NCBI GenBank assembly: GCA_947627565.1 | Contig: CANQWO010000005.1 | Span: 4,220-68,219, forward strand | DNA length: 64,000 nt | Source of the DNA: an uncultured Clostridia bacterium | GTDB lineage: Bacteria > Bacillota > Clostridia > Christensenellales > Borkfalkiaceae | Reading direction: 5' to 3' | In this document: positions 9,001-62,924 of the stretch, one piece after another | How positions within the stretch are numbered: position 1 is the stretch's first letter | How the letters are laid out: every line of letters starts with the position of its first letter | The notes under the pieces: model-generated | Seen by the model: only the letters and a program-made list of their open reading frames with translations | Databases searched by the model: none | What the model was told of the DNA's origin: nothing | Made by a program: the position numbers and the translations under genes

Positions 9001-12000
9001 TGCAACGAGTTCTTGTAGTTGCCTGTGCCCTGCAGGGTGATGAGCGCGTCCGTGGTCGCGTTCGTGTTATTGGTATATTGGATCGAGTAGTCTTTTCCCG
9101 TCGTCAGTGTTAAACGACCGGTTGCGGAAGGATAGTAGAATGTCGTCTCCGTCGTCGTTGTGACGTTCTCGTCATCGACTTCAATCGTCGTCGTAATATT
9201 ACAAATAACACCATTTCGACCGCAGGCAAAGGATTTGACTTCCCTCGTTTCGGGTGTCGGCGCCGATCCGTGTTCCCTCGTCCAATCTGCAACCGTAGTG
9301 GTTACGACGGTTTTTGCCTTGGAGACGGGTTGATAGTTGATGGTCACATCAGGCTCGTATTTCCACGCAGTACCCGCGAACGGATAGGAATTCTCCGTCT
9401 TTCCGTCGCTTGTGATTGTGGTTCCGCTGCCCGACGTGTCGGCATAGTGGTGATAATCCTTCTCGCCGACCTTCGTAATATCGCCGTAGAGCTCGCTGAG
9501 ATCTTTCTGATCGACCGTCACATTAAACCAGCTCTCGGAGGTGATCTTGAAGTTCAAATCGGTGTTGAACTTCTGCACCTGCTTGCCGTCCGCCTGCTCA
9601 TAGGAAATGAGCCACGTCACGCCCTCGGACGGCGCAGTGGTGGTGCCGCCATCGTCGTCGTCTTTCGTATTGCCCTTTTTGTCATATTCAACGGTGCTGA
9701 GGTGATACGTGCCGACATCCGCCTTCCCTGTGTTGAAGGAATAGAGGCCGATTCCGAGCGAGATGTCGTGCTGCTTGAACTCCTCGCTCGAGTAGGTGAC
9801 CGAGACATTCCCGAGCGTATAGCGGCCCTTGTAGAAGGCGGCGTCGTAGTAGATATTGTTGCCGCCCCAAAGATCGCGGAGAGTGCGTGCCTTCGTCTCT
9901 GTTGCACCTGCGTAAGGCGCATACTCCTCCGTCGTATAACTCACAGCATGCTGATTGGTAATAAGTTCATTCGGTGTGGTGATGTTATCCTGTACGAGGA
10001 AGAAAATGGATTCGTACCATGCGTCGTCATCACCCTGACCAACACGCGGCGGGAGATATCTCGCCCGTTCGAAGCTACTGCCGTCGTAGGTATAGGAAAG
10101 GCTGCCCGATACGGTGATCTCGACGGGTTTGATCGTGTAGGTGCCGATGTAGACGCCCTTGAAGTTGGTGACGGGAACATACTTGGTTGCGCTTGCTTCC
10201 GCGCCCTCATTCCCCTCTATGGGCATGACGCCGCGGAAATAGACGAGGATCCAATATTCTCCCGCGTCTATGGGTTGGAACTTGCTCTTGAGGATAGGAT
10301 TGCCGTTTTCGTCCGTTCCCTCATATTTCGTCTCGGTTTCCCAAATTGCCCACTTGGAATTGTCCGGTTGTTCGATCCCGTCGGCCGTGACCTTGATGTC
10401 ATCGGGCGCGGAGCCGTCCGCATTCGCGGGATGATCCTTCTTGGAGAGATAGCGGACCTGCACGACTTTTTCATCGGGCATTTCGGGATAGTTGTAGAGA
10501 CCGCGGTTCGCGCCGCCGGCGGAATACCGCCCTGTGATGTTCGGCTCGGCGTTCGTGGCGTCGTAGGTGCGGTCGTCGAGGTTGATACTGCCCTGGCCCT
10601 CTTCGGGAACTTGCTCATTCGTCCAATGCTCGATCTCAACGGGCGAGATAAAGAAGTAGTAAGCAAATTCGTAAGCGACATCGCGGCCCTGTTCGTCTTT
10701 GGTTACCTTCTCGGCCATGCGCTGGAGGTCTTTCGAGGTAAAGATATAGTCGTTATAGGGCTTACCGCGCTCGGTGAACGGATTGTCCTTATCCGGCGCG
10801 TTTTCGTTCCACATCTTGGTGTTCAGCGAGACGTGCACAACATACTTGCCCGCGTCTTTCACGCCCCAACGTTCGGTGCCGTCGGAGTTATCCTTAATAC
10901 CGACCGCTTCATTCACGTCCAAGTTGTCGCTGTGCGCAACATAGTAATCAAACGTATAGTAATTGACGACGACGTTCTTATCGAGTTCGGGGTCGTTGCC
11001 CGCTTCATCGTTGTTGTTGAAGTAGAGGATCTGCTTGGTCGTGTAGACGCCGTCTTTGAAGGTGTAGCCGTAGACCTTCTTCTCATCGATCTCGCGCACT
11101 GTGGCATTGTCTTCGAGCCATACGGAGACGGAGACGCGCTGAATGGGCAAGTGCATCTCGCTCTGGAAGGCGATGTTGTTCTTCATGTAGTCGACGGAAG
11201 GCGCGGGGCCCTTTCCGACGACCTCGTGCGCGCCGCGCACTTCATAGAAGCCCGCGTGCAGGAAGTAGTTGGTCTTTTCGAGCTCTTTTTGCGTGCTGTC
11301 GCCGAGTTCGCGCCAGTAGTATTCGAGATCGAAATCGACTTTCCCGAAGTCGATCTCCACGTCCGCGCCGAAGAAGTCCTTATTGGCGTAAGTGAACTTC
11401 ATAACCGCGCCGGTGAACTTTTCAGCGCTTACATTGCCCGCGCTATCCTTGACCTTGCCTTTATCAGGGCCCTCTGTTGTTATAAATCTGCTATCCAGCA
11501 CGAAGTCATACGCCGTGCCGCGATAGTAGAGCGCGCCCGCAAGATATTCTTTAATTTTATCTTCGCCCGGAGTGGCGTTGTCTTTGAAGATATTCTCCTT
11601 GTCCTTCCAAGTCGTTTCGCCGTTCTTGACTTCGTATGCGGAAACGCCTACGCCGAGCTGGTTGATGTGGATGGTAAAGGTTGCGTTGGAATAAACGGTT
11701 GCGTTCTTGTCAATTACGCGGAAGGAATAGTCGCCCGCATAGACGAGCCTGCCGTCCGTCGCCTCATTCTCCTCGCCCTGCGCGGCGAGCAGATAGTGGA
11801 GGGTATAATCGACCCCTGCCGTATGAGAACTGCCATCATCTTCGGTCGCTTTCAGTTTGTCGATCGTCCAAGTAGCCTTTGTTTCACCCCCCGCTTTGGC
11901 GACGACCTTCGTGACTTCGAACATCTTGTGGTCGAACAGCATGGTCTTGCCCGTCCACTTGAAGGAATTGATCTCCGCGTCGGGGTTTGAGCCCTTGGGG

Positions 12001-15145: not shown

Positions 15146-15174
15146 ATTTTATTTCGCTTGAAGCAATTTGTCAA
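15146..15174 (-). promoter_or_regulatory. Sigma-70-type promoter of the giant gene
   Basis: On the minus strand: TTGACA (15169-15174), 17 nt, TAAAAT (15146-15151). An extended -10 (TGATATAAT) lies just downstream. The -35 sits inside the palindrome AATTTGTC-N10-GACAAATT (15165-15190). Confidence 0.55.
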
Positions 15175-18654: not shown

Positions 18655-18710
18655 ATCTTGTTGACTTTTTTTTCAGAATGCGGTACAATAACAAAGGCTT
18701 TCAGGGAAAT

Positions 18711-18794
18711 GCGGTCGTGGCGGAATTGGCAGACGCGCAAGACTAAGGATCTTGTGGGATGACCGTGCAGGTTCAACTCCTGTCGACCGCACCA
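18711..18794 (+). tRNA. tRNA-Leu, type II (long variable arm), anticodon AAG as read, CCA encoded
   Basis: Acceptor GCGGTCG pairs with CGACCGC. The anticodon stem is CAAGA/TCTTG with loop C-T-AAG-G-A (anticodon at 18745-18747). The variable arm is TGGGATGACCGTGC, the T-loop TTCAACT, and the 3' end ACCA. Confidence 0.85.
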
Positions 18795-18803
18795 AGTCAG
18801 TAT

Positions 18804-18853
18804 AATCCGAACCAAATACTCGTAACGAGTGAATGGTTCGGATTTACTTTTTA
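18804..18853 (+). terminator. Terminator after the tRNA-Leu
   Basis: AATCCGAACCA...TGGTTCGGATT stem with an inner ACTCG-TAA-CGAGT hairpin, followed by TACTTTTTA. Confidence 0.6.
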
Positions 18854-18943
18854 TTGGGGAACGCCACTTGCTGCTTGCGTTTCTCTTGTTTTTATGGTAT
18901 AATCAAAGCAATAAACAAGAATTGATTGCATGTAGGAGCATCC

Positions 18944-19135
18944 ATGAAAAAATTACTTTATCTGATGGGTAGTATTGAAGCAATTATCGGAATTTTACTT
19001 CTCAGCGTCGTTGCATTCATTTACGATTTGGGTAAATATTACTCAATCTCGATTCCACTCGCATCTGTTCTTGCAATTGTTCTGATTTTTACAGGTATCG
19101 TACAGATTGTTTTTGCATTTATCAAGAACCCGTAA
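18944..19135 (+). CDS. Small hypothetical membrane protein (63 aa, two TM helices)
   Basis: AGGAG, 5 nt, ATG 18944. The sequence is MKKLLYLMGSIEAIIGILLLSVVAFIY...ASVLAIVLIFTGIVQIVFAFI. Local GC is lower than in the flanks. No recognisable family. Confidence 0.4.
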   Translation: MKKLLYLMGSIEAIIGILLLSVVAFIYDLGKYYSISIPLASVLAIVLIFTGIVQIVFAFIKNP

Positions 19136-19325
19136 GAACAAATTTCGGTTTCGCCGCACGGACGACAGGCATCTATACCATAGGTATAGCACACTATACT
19201 TATTGCGCTACGCTCCATAAGTTCCGTGTGCCCTGCGGGCCTGTTAGTCCACAAGGAAAGAGAAAGGGTTTTAGGGGAAATCTTCCCCCAACTCTGGTTT
19301 GGTTTATAATTGCCTCGGTGTACCA

Positions 19326-19367
19326 CAAAAAAGGCGGAGAAAATCGCTTGATTTTCTCCGCCTTTTT
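19326..19367. terminator. Bidirectional hairpin terminator
   Basis: AAAAAA-GGCGGAGAAAATC-gctt-GATTTTCTCCGCC-TTTTTT. Confidence 0.65.
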
Positions 19368-19437
19368 TATCTACAAAATTGTTACGGAGAAAGGCTCGGC
19401 ATTGCTACTTGCATAAAATTTTTACAAAAAACAGTGA

Positions 19438-19469
19438 AAGGGCTCGGTTGATACAACCGGGCCCTTTTG
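19438..19469 (-). terminator. Terminator of the fructan-type operon
   Basis: On the minus strand, AAAGGGCCCGGTTG-TATC-AACCGAGCCCTTT is followed by CACTGTTTTTTG. It lies 60 nt after the stop at 19531. Confidence 0.65.
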
Positions 19470-19530
19470 CTTTTTGCACGTTGATTTTTAATCAGGAACG
19501 GAAAGAACTTCCGCGGCGGCGCTTCGGAAA

Positions 19531-29659: not shown

Positions 29660-32600
29660 TTATTTATGTCCCGCCTTCAATGCGGCTGTGAACGTGTAAT
29701 TCCCCGCGTTCTTGAACGCGCCGCCCGAGGGAGTTTTCAATGCGACGTCGAGGACGAGCTCCCCGTCTTCACCGAGTCCGTGAACCGTCGCCGCGGGCAT
29801 GGGTAGCGCGGAACCCGTGTAGGCATAGCTTCTCTCTGCCCACGTCGCGGAAACGGTTGCCTGCGCAATCCTGAAGAGGAAAATCAAGTCGTCCGTTTTG
29901 CCGTCCGCCCATTCGTAGTTGGCCTTATCGCTGAGCACAACTTTCACTTCATAGCCCGCCTCGTTGGCGTTGGTCTGCTTGTTGCCGGTCATGGTATAGG
30001 CGGGGTTCTCCGCGACGGCATAGGTCTGCTCCGTGCCCGTGTAGACAAAGGCCGTCTTATCCTCGCTCGGCTTGGTGACTTGCTGTTTGGTAATGGTGAG
30101 CGTGGCCTGCATGGGCGCAATGGGTTCATAGTGCTCCGCATCGCCCGTGAAGATCGCCATCACCTTGTATACGCCGGCATTGGTGCGCTCATTGCCCGCA
30201 TATTCCACGGAAACGTCCCCGGGCAGTTTTCCTCCAATGGCGAGACTGTGCGGCTTTCCGTCATACGGGAAACTCGCGTCCTCAAACGTTATGCCCTTCA
30301 TGTTGTAGGTCGCCCTGGTGATGGTGAGGACGGCCCTCATGGATTTGGGGACTTCATAGTTCTCGTCCACCGTGAAGATTGCCGTTACGGTGTAAACACC
30401 CGGTTCGGTTGCCCCGTCCGTACTGTAACCATTGTCCCCCGAATAGGTCACGGAAACGCCGACGGGCAAATTCCTGACTTCAAGTTTGTGCGCGGAATTG
30501 TCCCATGTGATCGTCTGATCCGCGAACGTCACGCCCGACATATCGTAATTGGCTTTTGTGATCGTGAAGATAAGAATAATCTCCGCTTCATCGCTGGTTG
30601 CCCACTTGTAGTTTTCGGGGTGTTGAAGCGCAAGTTTGACCTCATAATCGTCCGCGCCGATCCCGCCGTTGTTTTCGCTCACGCGGTAGAGCGGGGAATC
30701 ATCGACATCCGCCTTCTGCGTTTTGCCGTTATACACCTTACTTGCAATCGTCGGCGCAGTCACCGTCTGTTTTTCGATGATGTAGGCACGTGTCTCCGTA
30801 CTCTCATTGAGCGTGTAGTTCTTCGTCTTGTCGTCCGCGCTATCGAACGCCGCCTTGAAAACATAGCCCCCTGCGTTCATAAATGTCTGTGCGGAGCCGC
30901 TCAATGCGACCAAAAGCGTAAACGTGCCGTCATTGCCTATCCCTTCTGCCATCGCAGTGGGAAGATCGGTGAACGCCGACCCCGTGTAAGTGTAACGCTT
31001 GTCGCTCCACTTGGCTTCGATCATCTTCTGTCCGACGGTGAGCGTCCCGTTCTCAAACTTGATATCGTAGTTGCCCGAGGAAAGCCCGCTCGGCGTAATG
31101 ACGTATTCGCCGATGTCCTTGAACGCCGCATACCCACCGTAATCAAACGTCAACACGCCTGAAAGATCGCTCTCGCTCTCTCCGTTCACAAAGCCGTTAT
31201 ACGTTACGCCGCCATCGGAAGGCTCATCGCCGTAAGTGATGGCCTTATTCTTCGCCGTCACGGTGAGCGGCGCCTTTGCGATGGTGTACTTCAATTCCGT
31301 TCCGCCTTTCGCGTCTGCAAATTCCACATCGTAGTTCGGGTTAGAGCACGTCGGGACGACGGTATAAGTATCCGCGGGCGTGGTGACGCTCGGTGCATCC
31401 GTCCCTTCCAGAGTATAGGAAAGTCTGAGGATACCAAGATCATCATCCCCATTTGCCTCATTTTGGGCGTACCAAGTTCCCGTCGCACCCACTGTCGCGC
31501 GAGTAGCCGAGTTGACCGTCACCCAATTCGTGTGGGGCTCCCCATAGGTCGCCCCTTTCCCAAAGGTCAGCGTGACATTTATTTTTCTTGCCTTAACTTC
31601 AAAACTCGGGTTGCCGTCCGCCCACGCAAACGTGAGATACTTTGAAGTATCTTTGTCCGCGGCGTCAACGTAGAGATGATAGGTGCCGAGCGGCAGGTTG
31701 TCTACCCTTTTCGATTGCGAGCCGCTTTTGTGCAGAATGCCGTCCTCTTCAACGGTGTAAATATCGTCGTCTGCAATGGTATTGTCCTTGCGAAGATAGA
31801 AAATAAAACTATCGATATTGTCTTTGAAGTCTTTCGTTTTGTCTCTATCGAGTTGCCCCATTACTTTTTGGATGCCGCTGAGGATGTCTTTTTCAAAGGC
31901 ATCTTTCGTATGGGCGACGTCGCCGTACTCCACGCCCTTTTCAAAGCCCGCTTTTGCCGCCTCGTTCAGAGTGATGTTCAGCTTTTCTGCCACAATGTGG
32001 ACGACGAAATAGTCGTAGCGCGTGTTGTGGTTGCCCTCGGTATCCACTGCTTTGAAATACACGACGTAGAACATCGGCTCTTGGGCGATTTTATCGGTGA
32101 GCCTCTCGTAATCCTTCCAATTCCCGGATGATTTCAGCTCGTCAAGATTTCCCTTTATTGTATCTTCTTTATACGCTGTTTCTTCATATTTTTGTACGAT
32201 ATACTGTATCTCAAGTTTGCTTATGGTTCCAGGGTACCACGTAACCCCTTTCCAATTGATGGGGAATTTTTTATCGGTCGGGTCGGGCAGTTTGAGTGCG
32301 ATCGGCTCCATACCCAAACTGTAAACAAACTCCCGCTTCTGTTCAAGCCTCTCGTTATTGAACGCCCCCGGTCGCCCGTTGTTGAACGTCACCGTCATAT
32401 CGGCGGGCACGACGGTATATGTAACGGTGATCTCCTCGTCTGTGCCGTCCTTCCACCGGAAATCCGTTGAGGGCTTGACTCGAATTTGGTATTTGCCTAC
32501 TTTTTTCGCCGTAATGGTATGCTTTGCCGAGTCATACCAACTCGTATCGCCGCCTTCGCCATTTGCAATGGCGGTGATTTCTACCACGTCTGTATTTTCG

Positions 32601-33943
32601 ATCTTCCACGTCACGCCATCGGGGGAGTAGGGCTTTGTGTCACCCTTCCAACGGTCTTTATCGGGCGTCGCACTGCGCATGGCGGCAGACAGATTGAAAT
32701 GAAGCGCAGGACGCACCCCGCAACTGCCCTTGTCAATATTGGCGTTGTTCACAACAAGCTGGTCGCGATTGCCGGAAGCGTTGAGCAGGTACGCGCGCTG
32801 CGCGTCATAGGCACCGCCGGAGCGGAGCCAACAACGGCCCAGCCCGACGCCGCTGTTAGCACTTCGAAGTGCTGCGTCGGTATTCCACATGCCGTCGCCG
32901 ACAAAATCCAGTCCGCTGCCGTAGACATCTTTTACGGTATCATTGGACATGCCCGTCTCCGTAAGAGAGGGGAGCCAAAGGTAGTCGTTTTGCCACGCAC
33001 CGTATGCCGTTTTGTCGGCTCCCTTGCTGGTGTACGCGCTCATATCGATAGAGTTGTATTTATACCAATGTTCGCCCGCTTTGCCTTGGCCCGGCGGCTC
33101 TTCCGTGGCCCCGACCGGGGCTGGCGTACCGTATGCGTCGTTTGGGAGAAAATAGTAGTCCGCGTTGTATCCGTAAAACGACTTCATCGTTCCCTCATCG
33201 AATTCCGTCTCCTGATACACCACTTCGGAGGGCTTGGCGAGGTACTCCGTCAAACTATTATCCACGCTATCCATCGTAAAGCGGGCGTATTGGTTGCCTG
33301 AGTTTTGAGCCTGCGGCTCGGACAATATAATACTTGACGAACGAATATCCTTCTTGGTATATTGCCCGCCCGCGTTCAAAGTCTCCACGCGGATCTTGCT
33401 CGTGGAATACATATTCGAGGGGTAGGTCTGATCGGTGCTTTTGTCGGACCAAAAGCCCGAATAGGTTGCGGCGTCACCCGCCGTAAGCGTATCCGCCGAA
33501 CGCCACAAGTCGAGGATGATATCGCCCTCTTGGGTGTTTGCGCCAGTGCGCTTCGCCGTTGTAAGGTACACGGCATCCCACTTCATGCCGCCGAAATACA
33601 CCGAAACGTTTTTCCCTTCGTTTACCGCACGAAAATCCGCGGAAGTTTTTGAAGTTCGTGTACCTTTCGGAGGTTCTGTAATTCCCACTGCCGTTTTTAG
33701 GGCATTATACGACCGCTCCCCGATGAGCTTCTCGATGAGGTCCATGATCTTGGCGCTGTCAAACGATTGGGTCTCATCGTCATAGATCTCTTCCACGGTG
33801 ACCCACTGATCATCACTGCCGCGCGCGGCATACGCTGTACTTGCAGGCGTCTGCCCGAAAATAAATGCAAGTGAGAGCGTCAGCGACATCAAAAGCGTAA
33901 GAACGCCGATGATGCTTTTCCTTTTCAAAATTTTTGTTTTCAC
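29660..33943 (-). CDS. 1,427-aa secreted adhesin-like protein: DUF6273-like N-terminal domain, Ig-like repeats and one MBG (YGX-type) domain
   Basis: GTG start at 33943 with AGGAGG plus 6 nt. Signal peptide ends ...PASTAYA. CWLRSGG...GVRPALHFNL matches the DUF6273-like motif. LTVTAKNKAITYGDEPSDGGVTYNGFVNGESESDLSGVLTF...GEYVITPSGLSSGNYDIKFENGTLTV matches MBG/YGX. The repeats are of the same type as in the giant protein (NAG.Y.F/V). Confidence 0.85.
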   Translation of the reverse strand: MKTKILKRKSIIGVLTLLMSLTLSLAFIFGQTPASTAYAARGSDDQWVTVEEIYDDETQSFDSAKIMDLIEKLIGERSYNALKTAVGITEPPKGTRTSKTSADFRAVNEGKNVSVYFGGMKWDAVYLTTAKRTGANTQEGDIILDLWRSADTLTAGDAATYSGFWSDKSTDQTYPSNMYSTSKIRVETLNAGGQYTKKDIRSSSIILSEPQAQNSGNQYARFTMDSVDNSLTEYLAKPSEVVYQETEFDEGTMKSFYGYNADYYFLPNDAYGTPAPVGATEEPPGQGKAGEHWYKYNSIDMSAYTSKGADKTAYGAWQNDYLWLPSLTETGMSNDTVKDVYGSGLDFVGDGMWNTDAALRSANSGVGLGRCWLRSGGAYDAQRAYLLNASGNRDQLVVNNANIDKGSCGVRPALHFNLSAAMRSATPDKDRWKGDTKPYSPDGVTWKIENTDVVEITAIANGEGGDTSWYDSAKHTITAKKVGKYQIRVKPSTDFRWKDGTDEEITVTYTVVPADMTVTFNNGRPGAFNNERLEQKREFVYSLGMEPIALKLPDPTDKKFPINWKGVTWYPGTISKLEIQYIVQKYEETAYKEDTIKGNLDELKSSGNWKDYERLTDKIAQEPMFYVVYFKAVDTEGNHNTRYDYFVVHIVAEKLNITLNEAAKAGFEKGVEYGDVAHTKDAFEKDILSGIQKVMGQLDRDKTKDFKDNIDSFIFYLRKDNTIADDDIYTVEEDGILHKSGSQSKRVDNLPLGTYHLYVDAADKDTSKYLTFAWADGNPSFEVKARKINVTLTFGKGATYGEPHTNWVTVNSATRATVGATGTWYAQNEANGDDDLGILRLSYTLEGTDAPSVTTPADTYTVVPTCSNPNYDVEFADAKGGTELKYTIAKAPLTVTAKNKAITYGDEPSDGGVTYNGFVNGESESDLSGVLTFDYGGYAAFKDIGEYVITPSGLSSGNYDIKFENGTLTVGQKMIEAKWSDKRYTYTGSAFTDLPTAMAEGIGNDGTFTLLVALSGSAQTFMNAGGYVFKAAFDSADDKTKNYTLNESTETRAYIIEKQTVTAPTIASKVYNGKTQKADVDDSPLYRVSENNGGIGADDYEVKLALQHPENYKWATSDEAEIILIFTITKANYDMSGVTFADQTITWDNSAHKLEVRNLPVGVSVTYSGDNGYSTDGATEPGVYTVTAIFTVDENYEVPKSMRAVLTITRATYNMKGITFEDASFPYDGKPHSLAIGGKLPGDVSVEYAGNERTNAGVYKVMAIFTGDAEHYEPIAPMQATLTITKQQVTKPSEDKTAFVYTGTEQTYAVAENPAYTMTGNKQTNANEAGYEVKVVLSDKANYEWADGKTDDLIFLFRIAQATVSATWAERSYAYTGSALPMPAATVHGLGEDGELVLDVALKTPSGGAFKNAGNYTFTAALKAGHK

Positions 33944-34018
33944 ATAAAACCTCCTAAAGGTGTGACGTCGTTCCGTGTACTTTCATCACCCATCCCCCGG
34001 CCGCATATCGCTCTTGAG

Positions 34019-34042
34019 CACAGAATAAGTAAATCCATGTAC
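34019..34042. repeat. Left inverted repeat (IR-L) of the candidate invertible promoter
   Basis: cacagaataagtaaatccatgtac. The 20-nt core at 34023-34042 is the exact reverse complement of 34188-34207. Confidence 0.95.
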
Positions 34043-34145
34043 TTTCAGAGAAAATGACAAGAGAAATGAACGGGGTCAACCGCCGCATTTTTCGACCCCA
34101 TGTTGATAATTTGCGAGATATTCTGAGAAAAAAACAAAAAAACTC

Positions 34146-34174
34146 TTGACTTTCGACATACAATAAGATAAAAT
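34146..34174 (+). promoter_or_regulatory. Strong promoter inside the IR-flanked segment, currently facing away from the adhesin gene
   Basis: On the plus strand: TTGACT (34146-34151), 17 nt, TAAAAT (34169-34174), preceded by the A-tract gagaaaaaaacaaaaaaactc. Confidence 0.6.
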
Positions 34175-34187
34175 AATTTTTGTCTAT

Positions 34188-34211
34188 GTACATGGATTTA
34201 CTTATTCCGTG
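34188..34211. repeat. Right inverted repeat (IR-R) of the candidate invertible promoter
   Basis: gtacatggatttacttattccgtg, the reverse complement of IR-L with one mismatch (23/24). Confidence 0.95.
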
Positions 34212-34212
34212 T

Positions 34213-34248
34213 ACAATGAAAACAGCGAGGATCTCACTCCTCGCTGTT
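34213..34248 (-). terminator. Terminator of the SPFH gene (hairpin usable in both directions)
   Basis: On the minus strand, AACAGCGAGGA-GTGAGA-TCCTCGCTGTT is followed by TTCATTG. On the plus strand the same hairpin is followed by TCTCTCTT. Confidence 0.65.
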
Positions 34249-34314
34249 TCTCTCTTACTGAATATGCGACATTATTTTTCGAACGATCCGCATCCCGCGG
34301 ACACCCTTCGCATC

Positions 34315-35481
34315 TCAGGGCGTCGGTACAGTCTCCGTGTCGCCGGACGTCCCGCCGGGGAACGGCAAAATGAAGCTCCCGCCTTCGCTTGCGACCAACG
34401 TATCGGGGAGTTTTCCGTCCCACGCCTCGAGGTATGCGATGTACTTCAAGTAATCCGCAATGAGCGCGACCCGCTCATCCGTTTGGCCCGTGAAGTCGAT
34501 CTCGTATTCGATCCCCGTTTGTATGGAATTTCCCGTGCCGTCTTCTTCGAAGACCGGCGTTTCGAGAATTTTGAACCCGAGCGCGCGGGCGATCTCAACG
34601 GATTTCGCCTTGATGGCATTCGCTTCGGCCTGCGCAATGACGAGCCGTGCCTCCGCGTCGCCTTCGGCTTCCGCGATCCGGGCCTGCGCCTGAAGTTTTG
34701 CGACCTCGAGCTCCTGCTCCGCCTTCACGAGCGCGGTTTCCTTTTCATACTCCGCCTTGAGCTTCTCCTGCTCGGCGATCATCTTGTCTTCGACCGTCTG
34801 CTCGAACGCGTCGGAGAAATCAATATTGGTGAGGACGACTTTTTCGATGTTGACAAAGAACGTGTCGTCGATGACCGATTTCACTTCTGATTCCACTTCC
34901 ACCGAAATGTTTGCACGGTTCTCGATGATCTCCATGGCGGAATAAGCGGAGAGCGTGGACTTTGTGGTCGCCTCCGCGACCGAAGCGATGCGGTTGCCGA
35001 GCGCCTGCAACGTGCCGTACTGTTCCGCAATGCTGAGCGCCTTTTCCTGTTTGATGGAATACTGCACGACCATTGCGATATCCATCGTCTGCGCGTCTTT
35101 GGAATAGGTGTTGGCGTCCATTTCGAGGTTTTGCACCTTGGCGTCGTAGGTCGCATACTCTTCCGTCATCCAAAAATCAAAATATGTACCCGGTGTACGC
35201 ACGAGCGTAGCCTTGCCGAGATGCTTGACGACCGCGACTTCACCCGTATCGACGGTATGAATGCTGAACGGGACGAAGAGAAAGAGAAGCGCAAACACAC
35301 CGGCTACGCCGATCCCGATCCATTGATACGGCCCCCGCTTTCTCTTTTTGTGCGCATAGAGGGCCAGAACTACGCCGCCTGCGGTCACAAGGAAGAAAAC
35401 CAATCCCACAATGACTGCAATAAACATGATAAAAAATGTGACTCCTTGCGGTAAACGTCTTTGCGCGTTTTCAACCGCCAT
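34315..35481 (-). CDS. SPFH/Band-7 (prohibitin/flotillin-like) membrane protein
   Basis: N-terminal TM helices, then VDTGEVAVVKHLGK...TYSKDAQTMDIAMVVQY and a coiled-coil AEQEKLKAEYEKETALVKAEQELEVAKLQAQARIAEAEG. The start is uncertain: ATG 35481, the track's TTG at 35517, or the internal ATG after AAGGAG. Confidence 0.75.
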   Translation of the reverse strand: MAVENAQRRLPQGVTFFIMFIAVIVGLVFFLVTAGGVVLALYAHKKRKRGPYQWIGIGVAGVFALLFLFVPFSIHTVDTGEVAVVKHLGKATLVRTPGTYFDFWMTEEYATYDAKVQNLEMDANTYSKDAQTMDIAMVVQYSIKQEKALSIAEQYGTLQALGNRIASVAEATTKSTLSAYSAMEIIENRANISVEVESEVKSVIDDTFFVNIEKVVLTNIDFSDAFEQTVEDKMIAEQEKLKAEYEKETALVKAEQELEVAKLQAQARIAEAEGDAEARLVIAQAEANAIKAKSVEIARALGFKILETPVFEEDGTGNSIQTGIEYEIDFTGQTDERVALIADYLKYIAYLEAWDGKLPDTLVASEGGSFILPFPGGTSGDTETVPTP

Positions 35482-35550: not shown

Positions 35551-37722
35551 TCAGCCGATCGCCTTCAAATGCCACACAAAACTCCCGAAATCCGGCAAAT
35601 TCGGCTTTAAGACGCCCGCATGCATAAGTGTGGATCCGTGCAGTTTCAGCCCGAGTTCGGCGATCTCATAGAGCGCGCCCTCCTCCAATCCCGCGAGGCG
35701 CAGGCGGTGATCGGTGTCCGCGGGAACGGCATGGATCTGCATCCCCACGGCATAGGCCTCCTTTTTGTCCTTGGAGACGACCGCTACGCAAAACAGATTG
35801 CTTTCGAAGGGATTTGAAATGCGGAAGAGGTCTCCGCGTTGAAGGAGCGGTTCCAGTTCACGGTAGGCTTTGATTTGCTGTTTGACGAGCTCCCGCTCCT
35901 TTTCGGAGAGCGCCGCCGGCGAGAGCTCGTAGCCGAAAGCGCCCAAAGAGGCGATGGCGCCGCGCGTTTCGAACGGCGTGGTCCGCCCCGTCTGGTGATT
36001 GGGGCACACGGAGACGTGGCAGCTCATCGCCGAGAGCGGATAGGCATACGAAGTCCCCCACTGGATCTTGGCGCGCTCATAGGCGTCCGTGTCGTCGCTT
36101 GTCCAGAACTGCGGGAAATAATAGAGCATCCCGGCATCGAAACGCCCTCCCCCTCCCGAGCATCCCTCAAAAAAGACGTTCGGAAAGGCCCGTTGCAGAC
36201 GTTCCGCGAGCGCATAGACGCCCAAGATATAGCGGTGACTGAACTCGCCCTGTTGGTCGGCCGGCAATTTGGCGGAATAAAATTCGGAAATATGGCGATT
36301 CATGTCCCATTTGACATAGGAGATCGCATAAGTACTCAAAATATTCGATACTTGTTCGAAGACGCCGTCCACAATTTCCGGGCGGGTCATATCGAGGACG
36401 AGCTGATTGCGCCCCGTACAGCGCGGGACGTCCGCCTTTCCGATGGCCCAGTCGGGATGTGCGCGATAGAGATCGCTGTCCTCCGAGATCATTTCCGGCT
36501 CGAACCACAGGCCGAATTTGAGGCCGAGCCGCTTGCAGTGCTCAATGACGGCGGAGAGCCCGCCCTGCAGCTTATCTTCATTCACAAACCAATCGCCGAG
36601 ACCGGAGGTGTCGTCATTGCGTTTCCCGAACCAACCGTCGTCGAGGACGAGCGTATCGACGCCCAATTCGGCCGCTTCGTCGGCGAGTTTACACAGTTTT
36701 TCATTGTCGAATTGGAAATATGTCGCTTCCCAATTGTTGATAACGATGGGCCGCCTTGCATAAGCGAGCGCGGGCGGCAGGATCGTTTCGCGGATGAAGT
36801 CATGATAGGCGCGGGAAAGGGCGCCGAAGCCCCCATCGCTGTGGCAAAGCGCCACCTGCGGGGTGACAAATTTTTCTCCCGGCGCCATTTTTTTGGAGAA
36901 ATTGAGAGATTGGATCCCGCCGCAGAGCCGAACTCCCCCCGTCTGCGACTTTTCCGCCGAGAGCTCATAGGAGCCGCTGTAAATGAGGAGCGCCGCAAAG
37001 ACCGAACCGTGCGTCTCCGTACAGCCGCGTTCGGCGAGCGCCAAAAAGGGATTCATCTGATGCGAGGAAGCGCCGCGCGTCGAAGAAACGGTGTAGGTGC
37101 CGTGGCCGAGCGGTACGCGTTCGGGCGTGCGCTCGGCGCAGTGCCGCCCATGCAGACACACCGCCTCGTATTCCCCTTCCGGAAGGTCCGCGCAAAACGA
37201 ATGCGCGCGCTTTAAGCAGACGGGCTGCGCGCCGCATTCGATCTCGGCGTTGCGGACCAAGATCCCGAATTGCTCATAGACGGTATAATTGAGTGTGATT
37301 TTCGCGCCCGAAAGGACGTCTCGCAGCACCAAGGCGAGCGTCTGCCCCCCCTTGCGGCAGTGCGGCATCCCCTCGAGCGCGGGAGCTCCGTCATAGATGA
37401 CGTGACGCTCATAGTGAAACCGGCTCGAAGCGTCCCCGTCCTCCCTGCAGAGAATGACGGACGGCGTGCGGAAATCGCCTTGGCCGTATGATCCGTATTC
37501 CTGTCCCGCAATATCCAAAGTAAACCAATGGTCGGCGTCGGGGGGGATGGGCGAAAAGCTGATCGGCCGCGTGCGCATATCGAAATAGGTGAGATCGTCG
37601 CTTTCGATGCGCCCGCCGTAATGCAGGTTGACGAGATAGCCGTTCGGATCGATCCAGATGAGATAGCTGAATGACTTCCCGCTCAAATAGAATATTTTGT
37701 TCGTTTCGTTAAATTCTATCAT
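35551..37722 (-). CDS. Alpha-galactosidase, GH36
   Basis: Start ATG 37722 (GAGG plus 6 nt; MIEFNETNKIF). Motifs LVLDDGWFGKRNDD, EGCSGGGGRFD and WTSDDTDA. Confidence 0.9.
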   Translation of the reverse strand: MIEFNETNKIFYLSGKSFSYLIWIDPNGYLVNLHYGGRIESDDLTYFDMRTRPISFSPIPPDADHWFTLDIAGQEYGSYGQGDFRTPSVILCREDGDASSRFHYERHVIYDGAPALEGMPHCRKGGQTLALVLRDVLSGAKITLNYTVYEQFGILVRNAEIECGAQPVCLKRAHSFCADLPEGEYEAVCLHGRHCAERTPERVPLGHGTYTVSSTRGASSHQMNPFLALAERGCTETHGSVFAALLIYSGSYELSAEKSQTGGVRLCGGIQSLNFSKKMAPGEKFVTPQVALCHSDGGFGALSRAYHDFIRETILPPALAYARRPIVINNWEATYFQFDNEKLCKLADEAAELGVDTLVLDDGWFGKRNDDTSGLGDWFVNEDKLQGGLSAVIEHCKRLGLKFGLWFEPEMISEDSDLYRAHPDWAIGKADVPRCTGRNQLVLDMTRPEIVDGVFEQVSNILSTYAISYVKWDMNRHISEFYSAKLPADQQGEFSHRYILGVYALAERLQRAFPNVFFEGCSGGGGRFDAGMLYYFPQFWTSDDTDAYERAKIQWGTSYAYPLSAMSCHVSVCPNHQTGRTTPFETRGAIASLGAFGYELSPAALSEKERELVKQQIKAYRELEPLLQRGDLFRISNPFESNLFCVAVVSKDKKEAYAVGMQIHAVPADTDHRLRLAGLEEGALYEIAELGLKLHGSTLMHAGVLKPNLPDFGSFVWHLKAIG

Positions 37723-37739
37723 AGTTACCTCACACAATC

Positions 37740-49130: not shown

Positions 49131-52100
49131 TTATGCGCCCTGAGGGCCGGTCTGTGCCGTAATGGCGGATTCGACGACCATGGGAACGCGCGTCGAGCCG
49201 TCATCAGGAGCAACCAACTTGCCGCCCGCAGCTTCGATCAGGGGATTGAGATAGGTCTCGAGCAGTTCGCCCCACCACATGATCTCCTTGTCAGCCTTTT
49301 TCACGATGAGGTCTTCGTCGATGTAGTAAAGCCACTCGTAGTGGACCATGGTATGGAGGTCTTTGCCATTGTAGAACGCCCAAGCGAAGGAGCCGTTGTA
49401 GAAGGAATTGTGATTCCCGTAACGGTGTCCGGTTTCCGGAGTCTTCAGCATATACTTGTTGATGACTGCCGCCATTTCAGCGTCCACATAGTTGACTTCT
49501 TTGTTGATGATACGAGCGATCTGTTTGCCGACATTCCAGAGATACTCAAGGTCTCTCCAGGTGCCCTCGCCGCGCGTGAGACCGGTAGCTTTGTCTTCAC
49601 CGCCGCCGGCACGGATCATGTCGACCACTTCTTCCATGTAGTCGACTTCGATTTCGAGCTCATGGGCATATTGATAGAGGTAGAATGCTCTCCATGCGTT
49701 GGCAATGCATTCATTTGTTCCATAGTGCTCGAAGCAGAGGAACATGGTGGCATCGCCGGCGCAATTTAAGCTGTTGTGCAGAAGAACTTGGTTCATGAAC
49801 CCGCCGAATACCGCGGTATAGGCGACCGTGAAAGTCGATGTGGAGCCGCCCGTGGAGGTGTTGAGCATCTTGACGGTGACATTCTGTTCCACAGGTACCG
49901 CTTCGACGACCGCATACTGCGTATCAAGGGTAGCCCAACGTTCCCAAGCCTCTTCGCCGGCAAGTTCCTTTATGCGCGCCTGTTTGGTCGCATCGAGTTC
50001 CGCAACGGATTCCTTCAGAACACGGAAGGAGGCAAGAGAATCAAGCATGAGTTTGCCATCGACCGGCTTGCCATCTGCGCCGTTGGGACGATTGTTCCAA
50101 GCGACCCAAGCAGTGAGATCGGTGAGGTCACCGAGCGCTCTGAACTGACGGACAAAATTGGCGACATCGGCCTCTTCGTCTGCGAGATCGTCCACGATTG
50201 CAGGAGCGGGGATTGCATGCACAGTCGTCTTCACGAGCATGGGCTCGCCGTTACCATTGGAAGGAGCAAGCAGAAGCCCTTCATAGCCCGCGCTCTTGAG
50301 GAGATCGTTGACTTTCTTGATCGCGGCCGCCCAGTTGTTGCCTTTCGTCAAAGACGAGAGATTGGTATCGATGCAGTTCATCCAATTTGCATTGAACGAC
50401 TTGATGTTGCCGACGGTTCCCGCATAGTAAGCATAGGCGAAGGTGCCATTGTACCAGCACTGATTCGTGCCGTATTTGGTCGAGCTGTTTTCATGATTGG
50501 CAACCATGTAGTGATTGACGTAGTAAGCAAGTTCGGCATCGAGATAGGTGCATTCGCCGCGAAGGATACGGCCGATCTGCTTGCCCATATACCACATGTA
50601 ATCGAAGTCGATCATGAGGCCCGCGCCCGCGTCAAGACCCGTATATTCGGGGTTGGAGGAGCCGGTGTGCGCGATCATATCGTGGATGTCGATGATGTAG
50701 TCGATAGCGACATTGTACTGTGCAAGCGCCTTTTCGAGATAGAGCGCATACATGGAGTTCTTCCAGCAATCCTGGTGCTCGACGCAGAGATAGCCCTGGC
50801 CGGCCTTGCCGGCCCCGTCGGTGCAGGTTTGGGCGGCGCTGTTCTTCCAGAACATGTGGTCGACGTAGCGGGCGAAGATCACATTCCGGCTGACTTGCTC
50901 GGTGGCGCTGAAATCGTCCTTCCAAATTTCGACCTGCGTCTCATCGGATTGAACAGCGTACCAATCGTTATAGAGTTTCAGCCAATCGCCGAAGACGGTA
51001 TCCGCAAGCGCTTCGCGAACGAGCGTCTGCTGGTCGCCTTCAAGCTCTGCATACTGCGCATAGACGGCATTGAACATGGAGAGCTCATCATAGAGATAGC
51101 CCGCGGTCTGCCCGCCATCGGTGGAGAAGCCCTTCCAAGCGGTGACATCATAGAGATCGGAAAGTTTCAGCGCTTTGAACGCCGTCACGACTTCCGTCGC
51201 TTCCGTGCTGAGGGTTCCGGGCGCCTTATCAAGCGCGGTGACGTCTTCGGCCACTGCAACGCCGTTATCCGCGATCTTGACGTCCGCCTTCGCGGCCTTC
51301 ACGATCTTAAGAACGGTTTCCTCAATGACCTTTTGGAAAGTTCTGCCATTGAAGCTGAATCCGAAGTAGATACCCCAATTCGCTTCGCCGCTCAATGACA
51401 TGCTGCCGTTCTTTTGGTCGATATTCCAATTAAAGTTGGGTTCCTTGAAATCAAAATTCTTCGTCGCGTTGACGACGGCCGCAAGTTCGGCGTCGAGATA
51501 GGTGCATTCGCCGTTTTCAATGCGAGCGACCTGCGTGAAGACGGGTTTGATGTAGTTTTCCCAGTCGTTGAGCATGCCTGCGCCGTTATACTGATTTTCG
51601 CTGTCCGAAGCCGCCATGAGGTTGATCAGGACTTCGAGATAATCCAGTTCAACATCGTTCTCATTGAGAATGTCGCGGATGTTGAGCACGCGGAACGTCT
51701 TGTTTGCGCCCTCAACCGTACCCGCGAACAGAAGCCTGTTCTCTTCATCTGTGTGTTCCGGGTTTTTCATCGCGCAAGGGAAGCGCATCGAAGCGGCCGT
51801 ATCGAAGAGCGTCGCAACGAGTTCTCTGCCGCTGAGCGTTTCGAGGCCGCTCATGTCGAGCTTGGGCACCGTGAACATCTTGGAGCCGAACGTACCAAAT
51901 TCGATCTCGGTGAGCTGTTCGTAGAGCGCGACCCAACGGGTCCACGTCGTGCCGCCAAGGTCCGTTACACCTCTCTGATCGGCGGTCGGAAGCTGATTGA
52001 ATTTCGCATAGAGTTCGCCGAAGACTTCCACCGCTTCGCTATAGAGATAGCCGGTCTTGGAAGGAGCTTCCGCGGGAGCCTTGTAGCCTTTCCACGTGTT

Positions 52101-53837
52101 GACGTCGAGATTGGTGAGCGTTTTCAATGCGTCAACGATCGCCTGCCCCTCTTCGCTGATCGACACGTTGTCTTCATAGACTTTCTGCGCCGCGAGGTAA
52201 GGTGCGAAATCGACTGCATTGTAGACGTAGCCCGCAAGCGAGGAAGCGGCCGCATCGCCGTTTCCATACAGCTTGCCGACTTCGTCGAGCTCATCGGTAT
52301 ACTCGGAAGCAGTCTCGGCAGTGATCGCGGAGAGCGCGTCGATTTGAGCCTGCACCGTCTTGAGTTCGCCAGAGAGATCGGCGGGCGTGTAGGCCTCATA
52401 CGAGAAGCTGAACGTCTCGTGTTCGTCGAGCGAATAGTCGATATAGGTCTGATTCTGGAAGAGCGTATAGTTGTAGATGCCCTTCGTGATGTCTTCGTAA
52501 CCGACTTTCGTGGACCACCACTTGCCGCGATAAGCGTCCTGAATGGGCTTTTTGTATTCCACGTTGGTCATCTCATCTGCGGCCGGGAAGTAGATCTCGC
52601 TGTTTTCGAAGACGATATTTTCGAACTTCGCGCCGTTGGTGTAGTCCGTCGCGCCGATGGTATCCTTGAGCTTGGCGTCTTTTTCGACGACGTCGAGCCC
52701 GACGGAGAAGAAGAAACCGTTGGTCGGGTCGAACGACTGACCGCTGTTGTCCTTATTGATGAACTCATCGTCGATCTTGACGTTGAGCAAGGTCTCCGTG
52801 CCGGACGTGACGGTGAGGGAATCGTAGAAATACTTATCGCCGTCTTCATCTTCGTCGCTGACTTCCTTGATCTCGAACGTGAGGGTATCCTTATCGGGCG
52901 TGAAATAGCCGCCCGTTTCGTCCCACGTGGAGGTCATGAGTTTGTCGCCGAGATAATACTCGTTTTCGACGATGGCATTGGAGCTGGGCGCATGTCCGAT
53001 ATATTCATACCAGACGCCCGTCGCCGTATCGCACGCGATACCGATCTCGTTGGTGTACTTACCGGCGCCGATGTAGAAGCCGAGGAACGCATAGACCTTG
53101 TCCTCAACGCCGTCGTAGGGAGGCGTGATCTTGGTTTCGCTCAGATCGAGGGTGTATCTGCCGCCCGTCGCACCGGAATCGCGCACGGGGATGCACTTGA
53201 TGGAAGCGTCCATCGAGGGATTGTGTTCCCAAGCGCGGCCGCCGTCCTGGAGCGGAGACTTCGCAAGATCCTGGCCGAGACCGTCTTTCGTCGCATAGCC
53301 GTTGACCGCCTGCGCCGTCTCGACGCCCTTGCTGACCTGATAGGTCGTCCACTTCTGATTCAGGATGCGGGTGAACGGAACGCCCGTCGACCAAGGCTCA
53401 TAGCCGAGAAGGCCGCCGTTTTCGTCGTAGTAATAGTAAACGTCGCCTGCATTTTCGCCGAAGCCCTTCCTGTTCTGGAAGACTTTGTGCGTCGAGCCCT
53501 TCATCAGGACATAGGAGCCGATCGTGTTATACGCCGTCTCCTTCGCCTCGAACTCGTCTACGTCGTTGTCCACCGCGGCTCTGATCGCGTCCACGAGGTT
53601 GCTGTGGTCGCTGACCTTCGTGCCGTCTTTGCCGTAGACCGAATATTGGTCGGCCACGCGGGGGTCGCTCTTCCCTTTCTTGACCTCGTCATCGACCACT
53701 ACGGGACCGGGATCGGGACCGGGGCCGGGATCAGGGCCGGGACCGGGATTCGGCTTCTTCTTGCCGCAAGCCGCGAGGCCGGCGACAGTAGAAAGAACCA
53801 TCGCCGAGCTGAGCAATAGTGCTACATACTTTTTCAT
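49131..53837 (-). CDS. 1,568-aa surface lipoprotein of unknown family, with three tandem Cys-containing helical modules of about 310-355 aa
   Basis: AGGAGG plus 5 nt, then ATG. Lipobox GLAACGKK followed by a PNPGPGPDPGPGPDPGP linker. The three modules lie at nt about 52154-51216, 51215-50202 and 50201-49134. They share W.G...G.LY, C.EH, DY...MI, GKQI.RI, EC.Y.DAE.A..VN.YM and L.AP..G...PM.V. I recognise no known catalytic or binding motif. Confidence 0.8.
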   Translation of the reverse strand: MKKYVALLLSSAMVLSTVAGLAACGKKKPNPGPGPDPGPGPDPGPVVVDDEVKKGKSDPRVADQYSVYGKDGTKVSDHSNLVDAIRAAVDNDVDEFEAKETAYNTIGSYVLMKGSTHKVFQNRKGFGENAGDVYYYYDENGGLLGYEPWSTGVPFTRILNQKWTTYQVSKGVETAQAVNGYATKDGLGQDLAKSPLQDGGRAWEHNPSMDASIKCIPVRDSGATGGRYTLDLSETKITPPYDGVEDKVYAFLGFYIGAGKYTNEIGIACDTATGVWYEYIGHAPSSNAIVENEYYLGDKLMTSTWDETGGYFTPDKDTLTFEIKEVSDEDEDGDKYFYDSLTVTSGTETLLNVKIDDEFINKDNSGQSFDPTNGFFFSVGLDVVEKDAKLKDTIGATDYTNGAKFENIVFENSEIYFPAADEMTNVEYKKPIQDAYRGKWWSTKVGYEDITKGIYNYTLFQNQTYIDYSLDEHETFSFSYEAYTPADLSGELKTVQAQIDALSAITAETASEYTDELDEVGKLYGNGDAAASSLAGYVYNAVDFAPYLAAQKVYEDNVSISEEGQAIVDALKTLTNLDVNTWKGYKAPAEAPSKTGYLYSEAVEVFGELYAKFNQLPTADQRGVTDLGGTTWTRWVALYEQLTEIEFGTFGSKMFTVPKLDMSGLETLSGRELVATLFDTAASMRFPCAMKNPEHTDEENRLLFAGTVEGANKTFRVLNIRDILNENDVELDYLEVLINLMAASDSENQYNGAGMLNDWENYIKPVFTQVARIENGECTYLDAELAAVVNATKNFDFKEPNFNWNIDQKNGSMSLSGEANWGIYFGFSFNGRTFQKVIEETVLKIVKAAKADVKIADNGVAVAEDVTALDKAPGTLSTEATEVVTAFKALKLSDLYDVTAWKGFSTDGGQTAGYLYDELSMFNAVYAQYAELEGDQQTLVREALADTVFGDWLKLYNDWYAVQSDETQVEIWKDDFSATEQVSRNVIFARYVDHMFWKNSAAQTCTDGAGKAGQGYLCVEHQDCWKNSMYALYLEKALAQYNVAIDYIIDIHDMIAHTGSSNPEYTGLDAGAGLMIDFDYMWYMGKQIGRILRGECTYLDAELAYYVNHYMVANHENSSTKYGTNQCWYNGTFAYAYYAGTVGNIKSFNANWMNCIDTNLSSLTKGNNWAAAIKKVNDLLKSAGYEGLLLAPSNGNGEPMLVKTTVHAIPAPAIVDDLADEEADVANFVRQFRALGDLTDLTAWVAWNNRPNGADGKPVDGKLMLDSLASFRVLKESVAELDATKQARIKELAGEEAWERWATLDTQYAVVEAVPVEQNVTVKMLNTSTGGSTSTFTVAYTAVFGGFMNQVLLHNSLNCAGDATMFLCFEHYGTNECIANAWRAFYLYQYAHELEIEVDYMEEVVDMIRAGGGEDKATGLTRGEGTWRDLEYLWNVGKQIARIINKEVNYVDAEMAAVINKYMLKTPETGHRYGNHNSFYNGSFAWAFYNGKDLHTMVHYEWLYYIDEDLIVKKADKEIMWWGELLETYLNPLIEAAGGKLVAPDDGSTRVPMVVESAITAQTGPQGA

Positions 53838-53889: not shown

Positions 53890-53918
53890 ATTTTAACCCA
53901 CAAATGCAGTTTTGTCAA
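53890..53918 (-). promoter_or_regulatory. Promoter of the 1,568-aa lipoprotein / ABC operon
   Basis: On the minus strand: TTGACA (53913-53918), 17 nt, TAAAAT (53890-53895). The box AAAAATTTTTTTCATAA lies upstream at 53923-53939. Confidence 0.6.
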
Positions 53919-62893: not shown

Positions 62894-62924
62894 AACAACT
62901 TCCTCCTTATCGGTAACTGCGTCT

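Follow-up and report, generated by a model that had tools for sequence, protein, structure and literature searches.

Upstream of the gene for a 1,427-aa secreted or surface protein, the 64-kb stretch of clostridial DNA analyzed here in full (the window) carries an element that, very probably, turns the gene on and off by inversion and was sequenced in its OFF state. This judgment is drawn from sequence comparison and is made because the sole promoter of the region lies reversed between inverted recombinase-type sites, and because dozens of related genes are arranged alike. The element is likely to be an invertible promoter switch (inverton) that controls the surface-protein gene (hereafter the adhesin gene), and it is about equally likely to be a functional or recently functional invertible promoter. 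An invertible promoter in the OFF orientation had been proposed in the initial annotation of this DNA, and comparative evidence that is strong but indirect supports the proposal: the architecture is recurrent, spacers are matched within site pairs, both orientations occur among paralogs, and recombinase genes adjoin the switch in four MAGs, while the window and two further contigs share a single orientation. Promoter activity within the segment, the class of recombinase acting at the window, and switching at the window locus are inferred.

Sites, promoter, and hairpins of the window element

The features of the element and its surroundings are as follows.

29660..33943, minus strand: controlled gene for the 1,427-aa secreted or surface protein, with a GTG start at 33943
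33971..33985, minus strand: isolated extra half-site, GAAAGTACACGGAA, about 15 nt upstream of the ribosome-binding site (RBS)
34016..34042: gene-proximal recombination site (the left repeat, IR-L), GAGCACAGAAT-AAGTA-AATCCATGTAC, given reverse-complemented, toward the adhesin gene
34043..34187, no strand: putative invertible segment, 145 bp and AT-rich, with comparable interiors in 40 related loci
34070..34101, minus strand: weak hairpin within the segment, followed by a U-rich stretch and oriented toward the adhesin gene as sequenced
34124..34143, plus strand: A-tract, GAGAAAAAAACAAAAAAACT, just 5' of the -35 hexamer; the L027 promoter has a similar A-tract
34146..34174, plus strand: promoter-like site, TTGACT-17-TAAAAT, directed out of the segment across the distal site, with the adhesin gene behind it
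34188..34214: gene-distal recombination site (the right repeat, IR-R), GTACATGGATT-TACTT-ATTCCGTGTAC, composed of an 11-nt arm, a 5-nt spacer, and an 11-nt arm
34220..34249: GC-rich hairpin of 12 bp flanked on each side by T-runs; it terminates the SPFH gene and is the putative sink for an OFF-state plus-strand transcript
34315..35481, minus strand: SPFH/Band-7 gene, co-directional with the adhesin gene and outside the switch
35551-37737, minus strand: GH36 melibiase, a neighboring gene

Read directly from the sequence, 34019-34042 (CACAGAATAAGTAAATCCATGTAC) agrees with the reverse complement of 34188-34211 at 23 of 24 positions, and the two form the top-listed and longest-armed spaced inverted repeat of the entire window. 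Their perfect 20-nt core, GAATAAGTAAATCCATGTAC, occurs exactly twice in the 64 kb even when up to three mismatches are tolerated, and it is absent from 100 dinucleotide-preserving shuffles (chance expectation 0). The 24-nt repeat bracketing the segment that had been described earlier is thus confirmed by both reading and shuffling, and it provides the inverted pair around a short segment by which invertons are recognized. The repeats are better described, nevertheless, as two 27-nt dyad sites at 34016-34042 and 34188-34214. The distal site has no mismatches to the family motif GTWCAYRGAWT-N5-AWTCYRTGWAC and shows dyad symmetry at 9 of 11 positions; read toward the adhesin gene (34214-34188), it is GTACACGGAAT-AAGTA-AATCCATGTAC. 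The proximal site has a degenerate outer arm (dyad 6/11, with three mismatches to the distal outer arm), and its inner arm and spacer are identical to those of the distal partner, together making up the 20-nt core. Degenerate proximal outer arms are common in the family (e.g., L057 and L019).

The spacers of the two window sites, AAGTA and TACTT, are asymmetric and exact reverse complements, and the sites are mutually inverted. Two inverted arms around a short asymmetric spacer, the form taken by tyrosine-recombinase core sites, are therefore found in the window together with the identical spacer and inverted partners; dyad symmetry among family sites reaches 11/11. To judge by its sequence, the 11-5-11 arrangement is that of a recombinase core site. 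Because the partner sites are inverted, the predicted outcome of recombination is inversion and not deletion. The half-site 9-mer TCCRTGTAC is present in four copies in the window, against 0.48 expected, and all four lie within 243 bp (33972-34214). A 10-nt direct repeat noted in the initial annotation does exist (TTCCGTGTAC at 33971 and 34205), but it is not a target-site duplication or an insertion footprint; its two copies are the outer arm of the distal site and the isolated half-site, i.e., two of the four TCCRTGTAC half-sites. An isolated half-site is found at a similar distance before the RBS in L019 and L029 as well.

A scan of both strands of 33800-34400 returned TTGACT-17-TAAAAT at 34146-34174 as the sole sigma-70-like match. 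The earlier claims that the segment contains the only strong promoter of the intergenic region, and that no -35/-10 candidate lies between the left repeat and the GTG at 33943, hold accordingly, with nothing comparable in the latter interval. It is also correct that the promoter lies on the plus strand and points away from the adhesin gene into a hairpin, and this terminator is strong. Across the window, 19 promoter-like sites score at least 10/12, nine of them within about 2.9 kb of intergenic DNA. Seven of these nine lie on the minus strand, each just ahead of a gene on that strand, and the site at 34146 is one of the two plus-strand exceptions. Several of the intergenic sites share the form TTGAC(A/T)-17-TAAAAT, and the hexamers and geometry of the segment promoter are the same as in related switches. 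By consensus prediction, the segment therefore contains an internal promoter able to face the gene once flipped, as expected of an inverton. The A-tract at 34124-34143 is a possible UP element.

The product of the adhesin gene carries a signal peptide, is DUF6273-like in its N-terminal domain, and includes an MBG (YGX-type) domain; the RBS of the gene, AGGAGG, is at 33950-33955. All genes neighboring the switch are on the minus strand, so the plus-strand promoter fires into the 3' end of the SPFH gene without a gene to serve. The SPFH gene had been called convergent, which is accurate relative to the plus-strand promoter but not relative to the adhesin gene, with which it shares a strand. On the minus strand, the 34220-34249 hairpin has a fold z of -5.5, and the plus-strand stretch that includes both the site hairpin and this hairpin has a fold z of -8.0. 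The hairpin at 34070-34101 was considered as a terminator within the segment that would face the adhesin gene while the switch is OFF; it is present but not significant (z = -0.66), and a role in blocking read-through toward the gene is speculative. A clearer analogue of this hairpin occurs in L016. Rfam matches to PrrB/RsmZ and ncr1015 were below threshold, fell mostly over the terminator and over the end of the neighboring gene or the promoter region, and were rejected as an identity for the element. In agreement with the initial annotation, no recombinase domain was detected by Pfam in the approximately 30 likely genes scanned in the window.

Related switches upstream of homologous adhesin genes

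Alignment of the adhesin N-terminal domain (A2) defined a set of 80 loci in uncultured Clostridia/Christensenella MAGs from rabbit (“Lapin”) and mouse (MGBC) gut, some of which hold at least 20 adhesin paralogs. The 700 nt upstream of each gene were scanned in Python for repeat pairs of at least 17 nt. Such pairs were found just upstream of 40 of 68 homologous adhesin genes, versus 12 of 813 control tiles from the same loci. The 40 pairs bracket 89-185 nt (383 nt in one case) and end 6-180 nt before the start codon. Several of the 12 positive control tiles resemble further switches (e.g., L074 1582-1755 and L040 4464-5043), and the L040 pair directly follows a recombinase gene. The close orthologs L017, L021, and L022 have no such repeats upstream; the switch is thus not obligatory for the adhesin family. 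Likewise, no repeats are present upstream of a P0122-type homolog in a low-GC organism, and P0139 was found in one place, without repeats. Apart from the promoter motif, the interior of the window segment resembles the interiors of related switches no better than shuffled sequences do, and switch orientation was therefore assigned from the promoter and not from homology.

Twenty-eight of the pairs resolve into a common 11-5-11 layout. The sites of MGBC101980 are GTTCATGGAAT-N5-ATTCCATGAAC and GTACATGGAAT-N5-ATTCCATGTAC, those of MGBC120929 and CAMWNK are (GT)GGACCTATT-N5-AATAGGTCC, and that of L018 is GTACACGGAATAAGATATTCCATGTAT. The closest ortholog, L016 (74% amino-acid identity), has the site GTACGTAGATT-ATGTA-AATCTATGTAC. 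The window sites belong to the GTWCAYGGAAT class. Among the loci of one genome the arms are nearly invariant and the spacer is the most variable part; the 12 loci of MGBC101980, for example, have 11 different spacers. Within the 28 pairs, mismatches occur at 1 of 140 spacer positions versus 78 of 616 arm positions, a contrast that arises partly by construction, as the repeat finder extends seeds from the arm center and is biased toward matched centers. Despite this centered seeding, the arm positions adjoining the spacer carry 20 mismatches in 280. Tyrosine recombinases such as lambda Int, Cre, and Flp require spacer identity between partners for strand exchange. Spacers that vary between loci and covary within pairs are, at the level of sequence, the pattern expected of a crossover region selected for partner identity.

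In related switches, the TTGAC(A/T)-16/18-TA(A/T)AAT promoter always lies at one end of the segment, 7-13 nt from a site and directed outward. This promoter points away from the gene in about 27-29 related loci, with L045 and L079 added to the promoter-based count of about 27 by homology with L066, and L016 by an extended -10; it points toward the gene in about six (L055, L070, L093, L047, L088, and L027). By a crude choice of ORF, the ORF preceding the switch runs in the direction of the adhesin gene in roughly half of the OFF loci, as it does in the window; the promoter is therefore not explicable as serving a divergent gene. In the MAG MGBC101980, the whole L070 element aligns to the L045, L066, L079, and L084 elements on the opposite strand, with 74-81% identity over about 210 nt (E 1e-32 to 1e-52), and the interiors of L070 and L090 likewise match on opposite strands. 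The single coding-region match recovered (L070 versus L045) is co-linear, on the plus strand, at 71% over 170 nt. Because L070 is inverted relative to its paralogs and the coding match is co-linear, there are homologous elements facing either way with respect to their genes. Such paired orientations, a further mark of invertons, are thus found in L070 versus L045, L066, L079, L084, and L090, with L027 in the ON geometry. As sequenced, L027 has the arrangement predicted for the ON state of the window: an A-tract, TCTTGACTTT, the -10 hexamer, TGTCTAT, and the proximal site, in that order.

Candidate recombinases in relatives were pre-filtered by motif and then identified with Pfam. In L019, L027, L029, and L040, the gene directly upstream of the switch encodes a tyrosine recombinase of about 300 aa with a Phage_integrase domain and, at its N terminus, a SAM-like domain. 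The four are orthologous (51-55% identical) and retain the catalytic R/HxLRH/GH/Y residues; none reaches an NCBIfam equivalog cut-off, and the “tyrosine-type DNA invertase” models score far below their cut-offs. The sites adjoining these four genes fit the same motif as the window sites, and on account of this homology the window switch is assigned to the tyrosine class, with its enzyme in trans. An Xer-like tyrosine recombinase encoded elsewhere in the genome thus presumably acts on the window sites. Three loci, L041, L044, and L093, encode serine recombinases of about 200 aa (Resolvase) next to the adhesin gene or not far from it, and in L041 and L093 the accompanying repeats are of another class (AAAGTAGAC... 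and AAAGTATAC...). A serine recombinase is the less likely candidate for the window switch. The motif filter, which could have missed one, picked up no recombinase in the 6 kb flanking the MGBC101980 loci; action in trans is apparently usual in the MAGs with many switches.

The flipped form of the window element was not found among the window and two independent ENA contigs (L001 and L002), whose intergenic regions are identical to that of the window; these are low-coverage consensus contigs. The near-identical contig L015 stops short of the switch. An exact scan for the 20-nt core gave no matches in 185,579 species-representative genomes, and in JGI metagenome contigs it gave two single-copy chance matches in unrelated DNA and no flipped copy. 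Hypothetical ORFs spanning the ON or OFF junctions, looked up exactly in a collection of 15 billion proteins, were absent in either orientation. Relatives retrieved by way of the SPFH gene have it in a PolA-CoaE-SPFH context with no adhesin gene downstream, and for that reason this synteny is uninformative. At the related locus with P0138, five contigs from different assemblies are identical and all OFF. The proteins that could be retrieved map to no ON locus, and the L027 adhesin was not returned by the homology search.

Proposed switching mechanism and alternative explanations

In the OFF orientation, the segment promoter would transcribe through the distal site into the bidirectional hairpin at 34220-34249, so that any RNA made would be short, about 75 nt. 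This state would leave the adhesin gene without a promoter and shielded from SPFH read-through by the same terminator, with the hairpin at 34070-34101 (not significant) perhaps acting as an additional shield. An Xer-like tyrosine recombinase would bring the two sites together, and strand exchange inside their identical spacers would invert 34043-34187. The resulting ON orientation would put the end of the -10 hexamer near 34056 (minus strand), and transcription of the adhesin gene would begin inside the proximal site or shortly ahead of it, about 100 nt from the RBS at 33950-33955. The flipped model thus agrees with the earlier estimate that inversion would place the promoter approximately 105 nt before the adhesin RBS.

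A locked or fossil switch, descended from a functional inverton and no longer flipping after loss of the recombinase or decay of the proximal site, is unlikely but is the alternative to be taken most seriously; the gene would then be silent for good or expressed by read-through. All three assemblies of the locus are in the same orientation, the window has no recombinase, the proximal outer arm differs from the distal one at three positions, and L029 indicates that such loci can collapse to a single site. Yet the 20-nt core of spacer and inner arm remains perfect, and in the family at large proximal outer arms are commonly degenerate (L057, L019), OFF is the majority state in consensus assemblies, and trans action appears usual in many-switch MAGs whose 6-kb flanks gave no recombinase with the motif filter.

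Fixed regulation is improbable. Here the dyad sites would be operators of a dimeric regulator, possibly with looping, and the promoter would make a non-coding RNA of about 75 nt ending at 34220-34249. The dyad symmetry of each site would suit operators; the plus-strand transcript would form two strong hairpins (z = -8.0), and Rfam gives a Bacillus sRNA as a weak match below threshold (E = 0.079). Operators, however, need neither identical, inverted, non-palindromic spacers nor spacers that are private to a locus and matched within its pair. This reading also leaves the adhesin gene without a promoter, and it sits poorly with homologous elements in both orientations relative to the gene and with the genes adjoining the sites in relatives, which encode recombinases and not regulators. 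A MITE-like element with terminal inverted repeats, inserted by chance between two genes, is very improbable. The size of the window element (about 200 bp) and its terminal inverted repeats fit, and a 10-nt direct repeat lies nearby, but that repeat does not abut the element ends. In place of the dispersed copies with abutting target-site duplications that characterize MITEs, the element is single-copy in the window, and public scans gave two single-copy chance matches in unrelated DNA. Comparable elements with locus-private spacers lie at the same position by homologous genes in many genomes, which scattered insertion does not fit.

The window element and its relatives raise the prospect of genome-wide combinatorial surface variation in gut Christensenellales-like Clostridia, a proposal that is tentative and stands slightly short of an even chance. 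In this proposal, dozens of MBG/DUF6273 paralogs would have private switches, of which the window element would be one, one trans-acting Xer-like recombinase would serve the shared-arm class, spacers of their own would insulate the loci, and a parallel set would be served by serine recombinases. One such recombinase could serve a whole class of switches because the recombinase-binding arms are shared. Private crossover spacers, if truly such, would insulate loci and prevent chromosome-scrambling recombination between switches.

Comparison with known switches

Invertible promoters are a classic route of surface variation in gut bacteria and have been documented mostly in Bacteroidales, Enterobacteria, and C. 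difficile. The mode of action proposed here is that of known invertons; this one comes from a poorly studied clade, and its more interesting side is the family-level pattern of many adhesin paralogs, shared arms, private spacers, and parallel tyrosine and serine classes. Full-text searches, and a term search within the DeepInverton survey (PMC11602134), found no paper on invertible promoters in Christensenellales. The window locus and its relatives indicate that an uncultured, host-associated clade of Clostridia controls a very large adhesin family by promoter switches. The combination of shared arms and locus-private spacers suggests how many switches can coexist in one genome without cross-recombination, and the 27-nt motif and the adjoining recombinase family offer a direct means of detecting phase variation from reads in metagenomes of rabbit and mouse gut.

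In Clostridioides difficile, the switches that depend on RecV include cwpV, flgB, and cmrRST, of which cwpV acts via a leader-RNA terminator. These resemble the window element in occurring in Clostridia, in having segments of about 150-200 bp and repeats of about 20-30 nt, in preceding surface-protein or motility genes, and in the service of several loci in trans by a tyrosine recombinase, as is proposed here. In contrast to cwpV, the segment in the window carries the promoter, and the repeat sequences are unrelated. The RecV set also differs from the present one, in which dozens of adhesin paralogs of one family have their own switches with shared arms and private spacers. In Escherichia coli, the 314-bp fimS element has 9-bp repeats, depends on IHF and Lrp, and is acted on by the FimB and FimE recombinases. 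Like the switch proposed for the window, fimS is an invertible segment with an outward promoter for a surface adhesin gene (fimbrial in E. coli) and tyrosine-type recombinases, and like fimB and fimE, the recombinase genes of L019, L027, L029, and L040 lie directly upstream of the switch. Unlike fimS, the window segment is 145 bp, has 27-nt dyad sites, and has no adjoining recombinase.

The invertible promoters of Bacteroides fragilis are served by the master invertase Mpi (cited in PMC11602134, refs 9 and 26). Like the Mpi system, the switches described here are numerous within a genome, share a repeat consensus, are apparently served in trans, control surface proteins, and are mostly OFF. 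Mpi, however, is a serine recombinase from another phylum, whereas the site class of the window is linked to a tyrosine recombinase and has locus-private crossover spacers. A subset of the related loci (L041, L044, and L093) does adjoin serine recombinases, as in the Mpi type.

The Xer/dif, Cre/loxP, and Flp/FRT systems resolve, excise, or integrate DNA and have spacers of 6-8 bp. Their sites share with those described here the two inverted arms and a short asymmetric spacer that sets orientation and is matched between partners. The outcome proposed here differs in being promoter inversion, and the variable core is shorter, at 4-5 nt; counting the flanking conserved A/T positions possibly gives a 7-nt overlap.

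Site arrangements at related loci

Two related loci in gut Clostridia, L019 and L029, encode a tyrosine recombinase next to sites of the switch type. Three sites of L019 (2571-2798) have a common spacer, which appears as ATTCT in the distal site and as AGAAT in the two downstream sites. Because the distal spacer is shared with both downstream sites, the distal site could invert with either one, in a nested or an alternative manner. Relative to each other, the two downstream AGAAT sites are direct repeats and would be a substrate for deletion. At about 2835-2860, L019 has a fourth site-like sequence, whose spacer (AGCTT) matches that of the single site in L029. In L029 (4945-6000), the tyrosine recombinase gene and a terminator are followed by just one full site (GTACATAGATT-AGCTT-ATTCTACGGTC) and then by the half-site (one arm motif alone). 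This region of L029 lacks both an invertible segment and an obvious promoter, and it looks like a collapsed or ancestral form of the switch.

An isolated recombinase half-site is found a short way 5' of the RBS in three related loci (the window, L019, and L029):

Isolated half-sites
Window 33971-33985: half-site (GAAAGTACACGGAA...), about 15 nt upstream of the RBS
L019 2877-2895 and L029 5953-5972: half-site, 11-14 nt upstream of the RBS

The isolated half-site may be an accessory binding site, a remnant, or a 5'-UTR element.

The contig of L018 (1-85), an ortholog at 66% identity, starts 56 nt before the proximal site, within the presumptive invertible segment; this assembly break could stem from a mixture of orientations among the sampled cells. 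The sole pair with a spacer mismatch is that of L071 (4314-4487; distal ATAGT vs. proximal ATTGT), and both of its spacers also occur elsewhere among related genomes (at L050; at L058 and L073). The L071 pair may be a hybrid produced by recombination between loci, or it may be a locked switch. A second repeat pair in L074 (1582-1755; 27-nt arms and a 120-nt interior) lies upstream of a further long ORF (1741-5544), which suggests tandem adhesin genes with one switch each.

Further switch and repeat classes in the adhesin family

A second class of switch, with different repeats (AAAAGTAGACTTTTTCT and AAAGTATAC...), is present upstream of the same adhesin family:

Serine recombinases near adhesin genes
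L041 1317-2256 and L093 2289-3096: second-class switch with an adjoining small serine recombinase (Resolvase domain)
L044 4853-5506: serine recombinase near an adhesin gene

Two related MAGs, MGBC120929 and CAMWNK, have a third repeat class (ATTAATATAATTGATGATCA), near which no recombinase was detected.

Predicted OFF-state RNA and other features of the window

With the switch promoter pointing away from the adhesin gene, the predicted OFF-state RNA (34175-34262, plus strand) is about 75 nt long and contains two strong hairpins (z = -8.0), one at the recombination site and one at the terminator. The same interval has a weak, sub-threshold Rfam match to the Bacillus sRNA ncr1015 (E = 0.079). 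This predicted RNA could be either a by-product or a functional sRNA.

Other promoters and promoter-like sites of the window
18661-18689, plus: promoter-like site TTGACT-17-TACAAT, the only other plus-strand intergenic one besides the switch promoter
15146-15174: fixed promoter TTGACA-17-TAAAAT, before ORF 3-14897
53890-53918: fixed promoter TTGACA-17-TAAAAT, directed at ORF 49131-53837

The promoter-like site lies directly 3' of an SLT-domain gene and points into about 800 nt (18700-19530) that lack a long ORF and include two strong hairpins (18804-18844 and 19327-19368). The minus-strand ORF at 3-14897 (at least 4,965 codons) extends past the left end of the window, and its GC content by codon position (0.52/0.41/0.72) is gene-like. 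No Pfam matches were found in its first 1,500 residues, and a search upstream of the ORF found no inverted repeat; its product is probably a giant surface protein. The minus-strand ORF at 49131-53837 (1,568 aa), also lacking a Pfam match, encodes another large protein, possibly located at the surface, and has no switch. A low-complexity, AT-rich 19-nt inverted repeat (62962-63048; 89% complementary, arms 49 nt apart) in the gap that separates gene 60947-62953 from gene 63103-63999 is probably unrelated to recombination.
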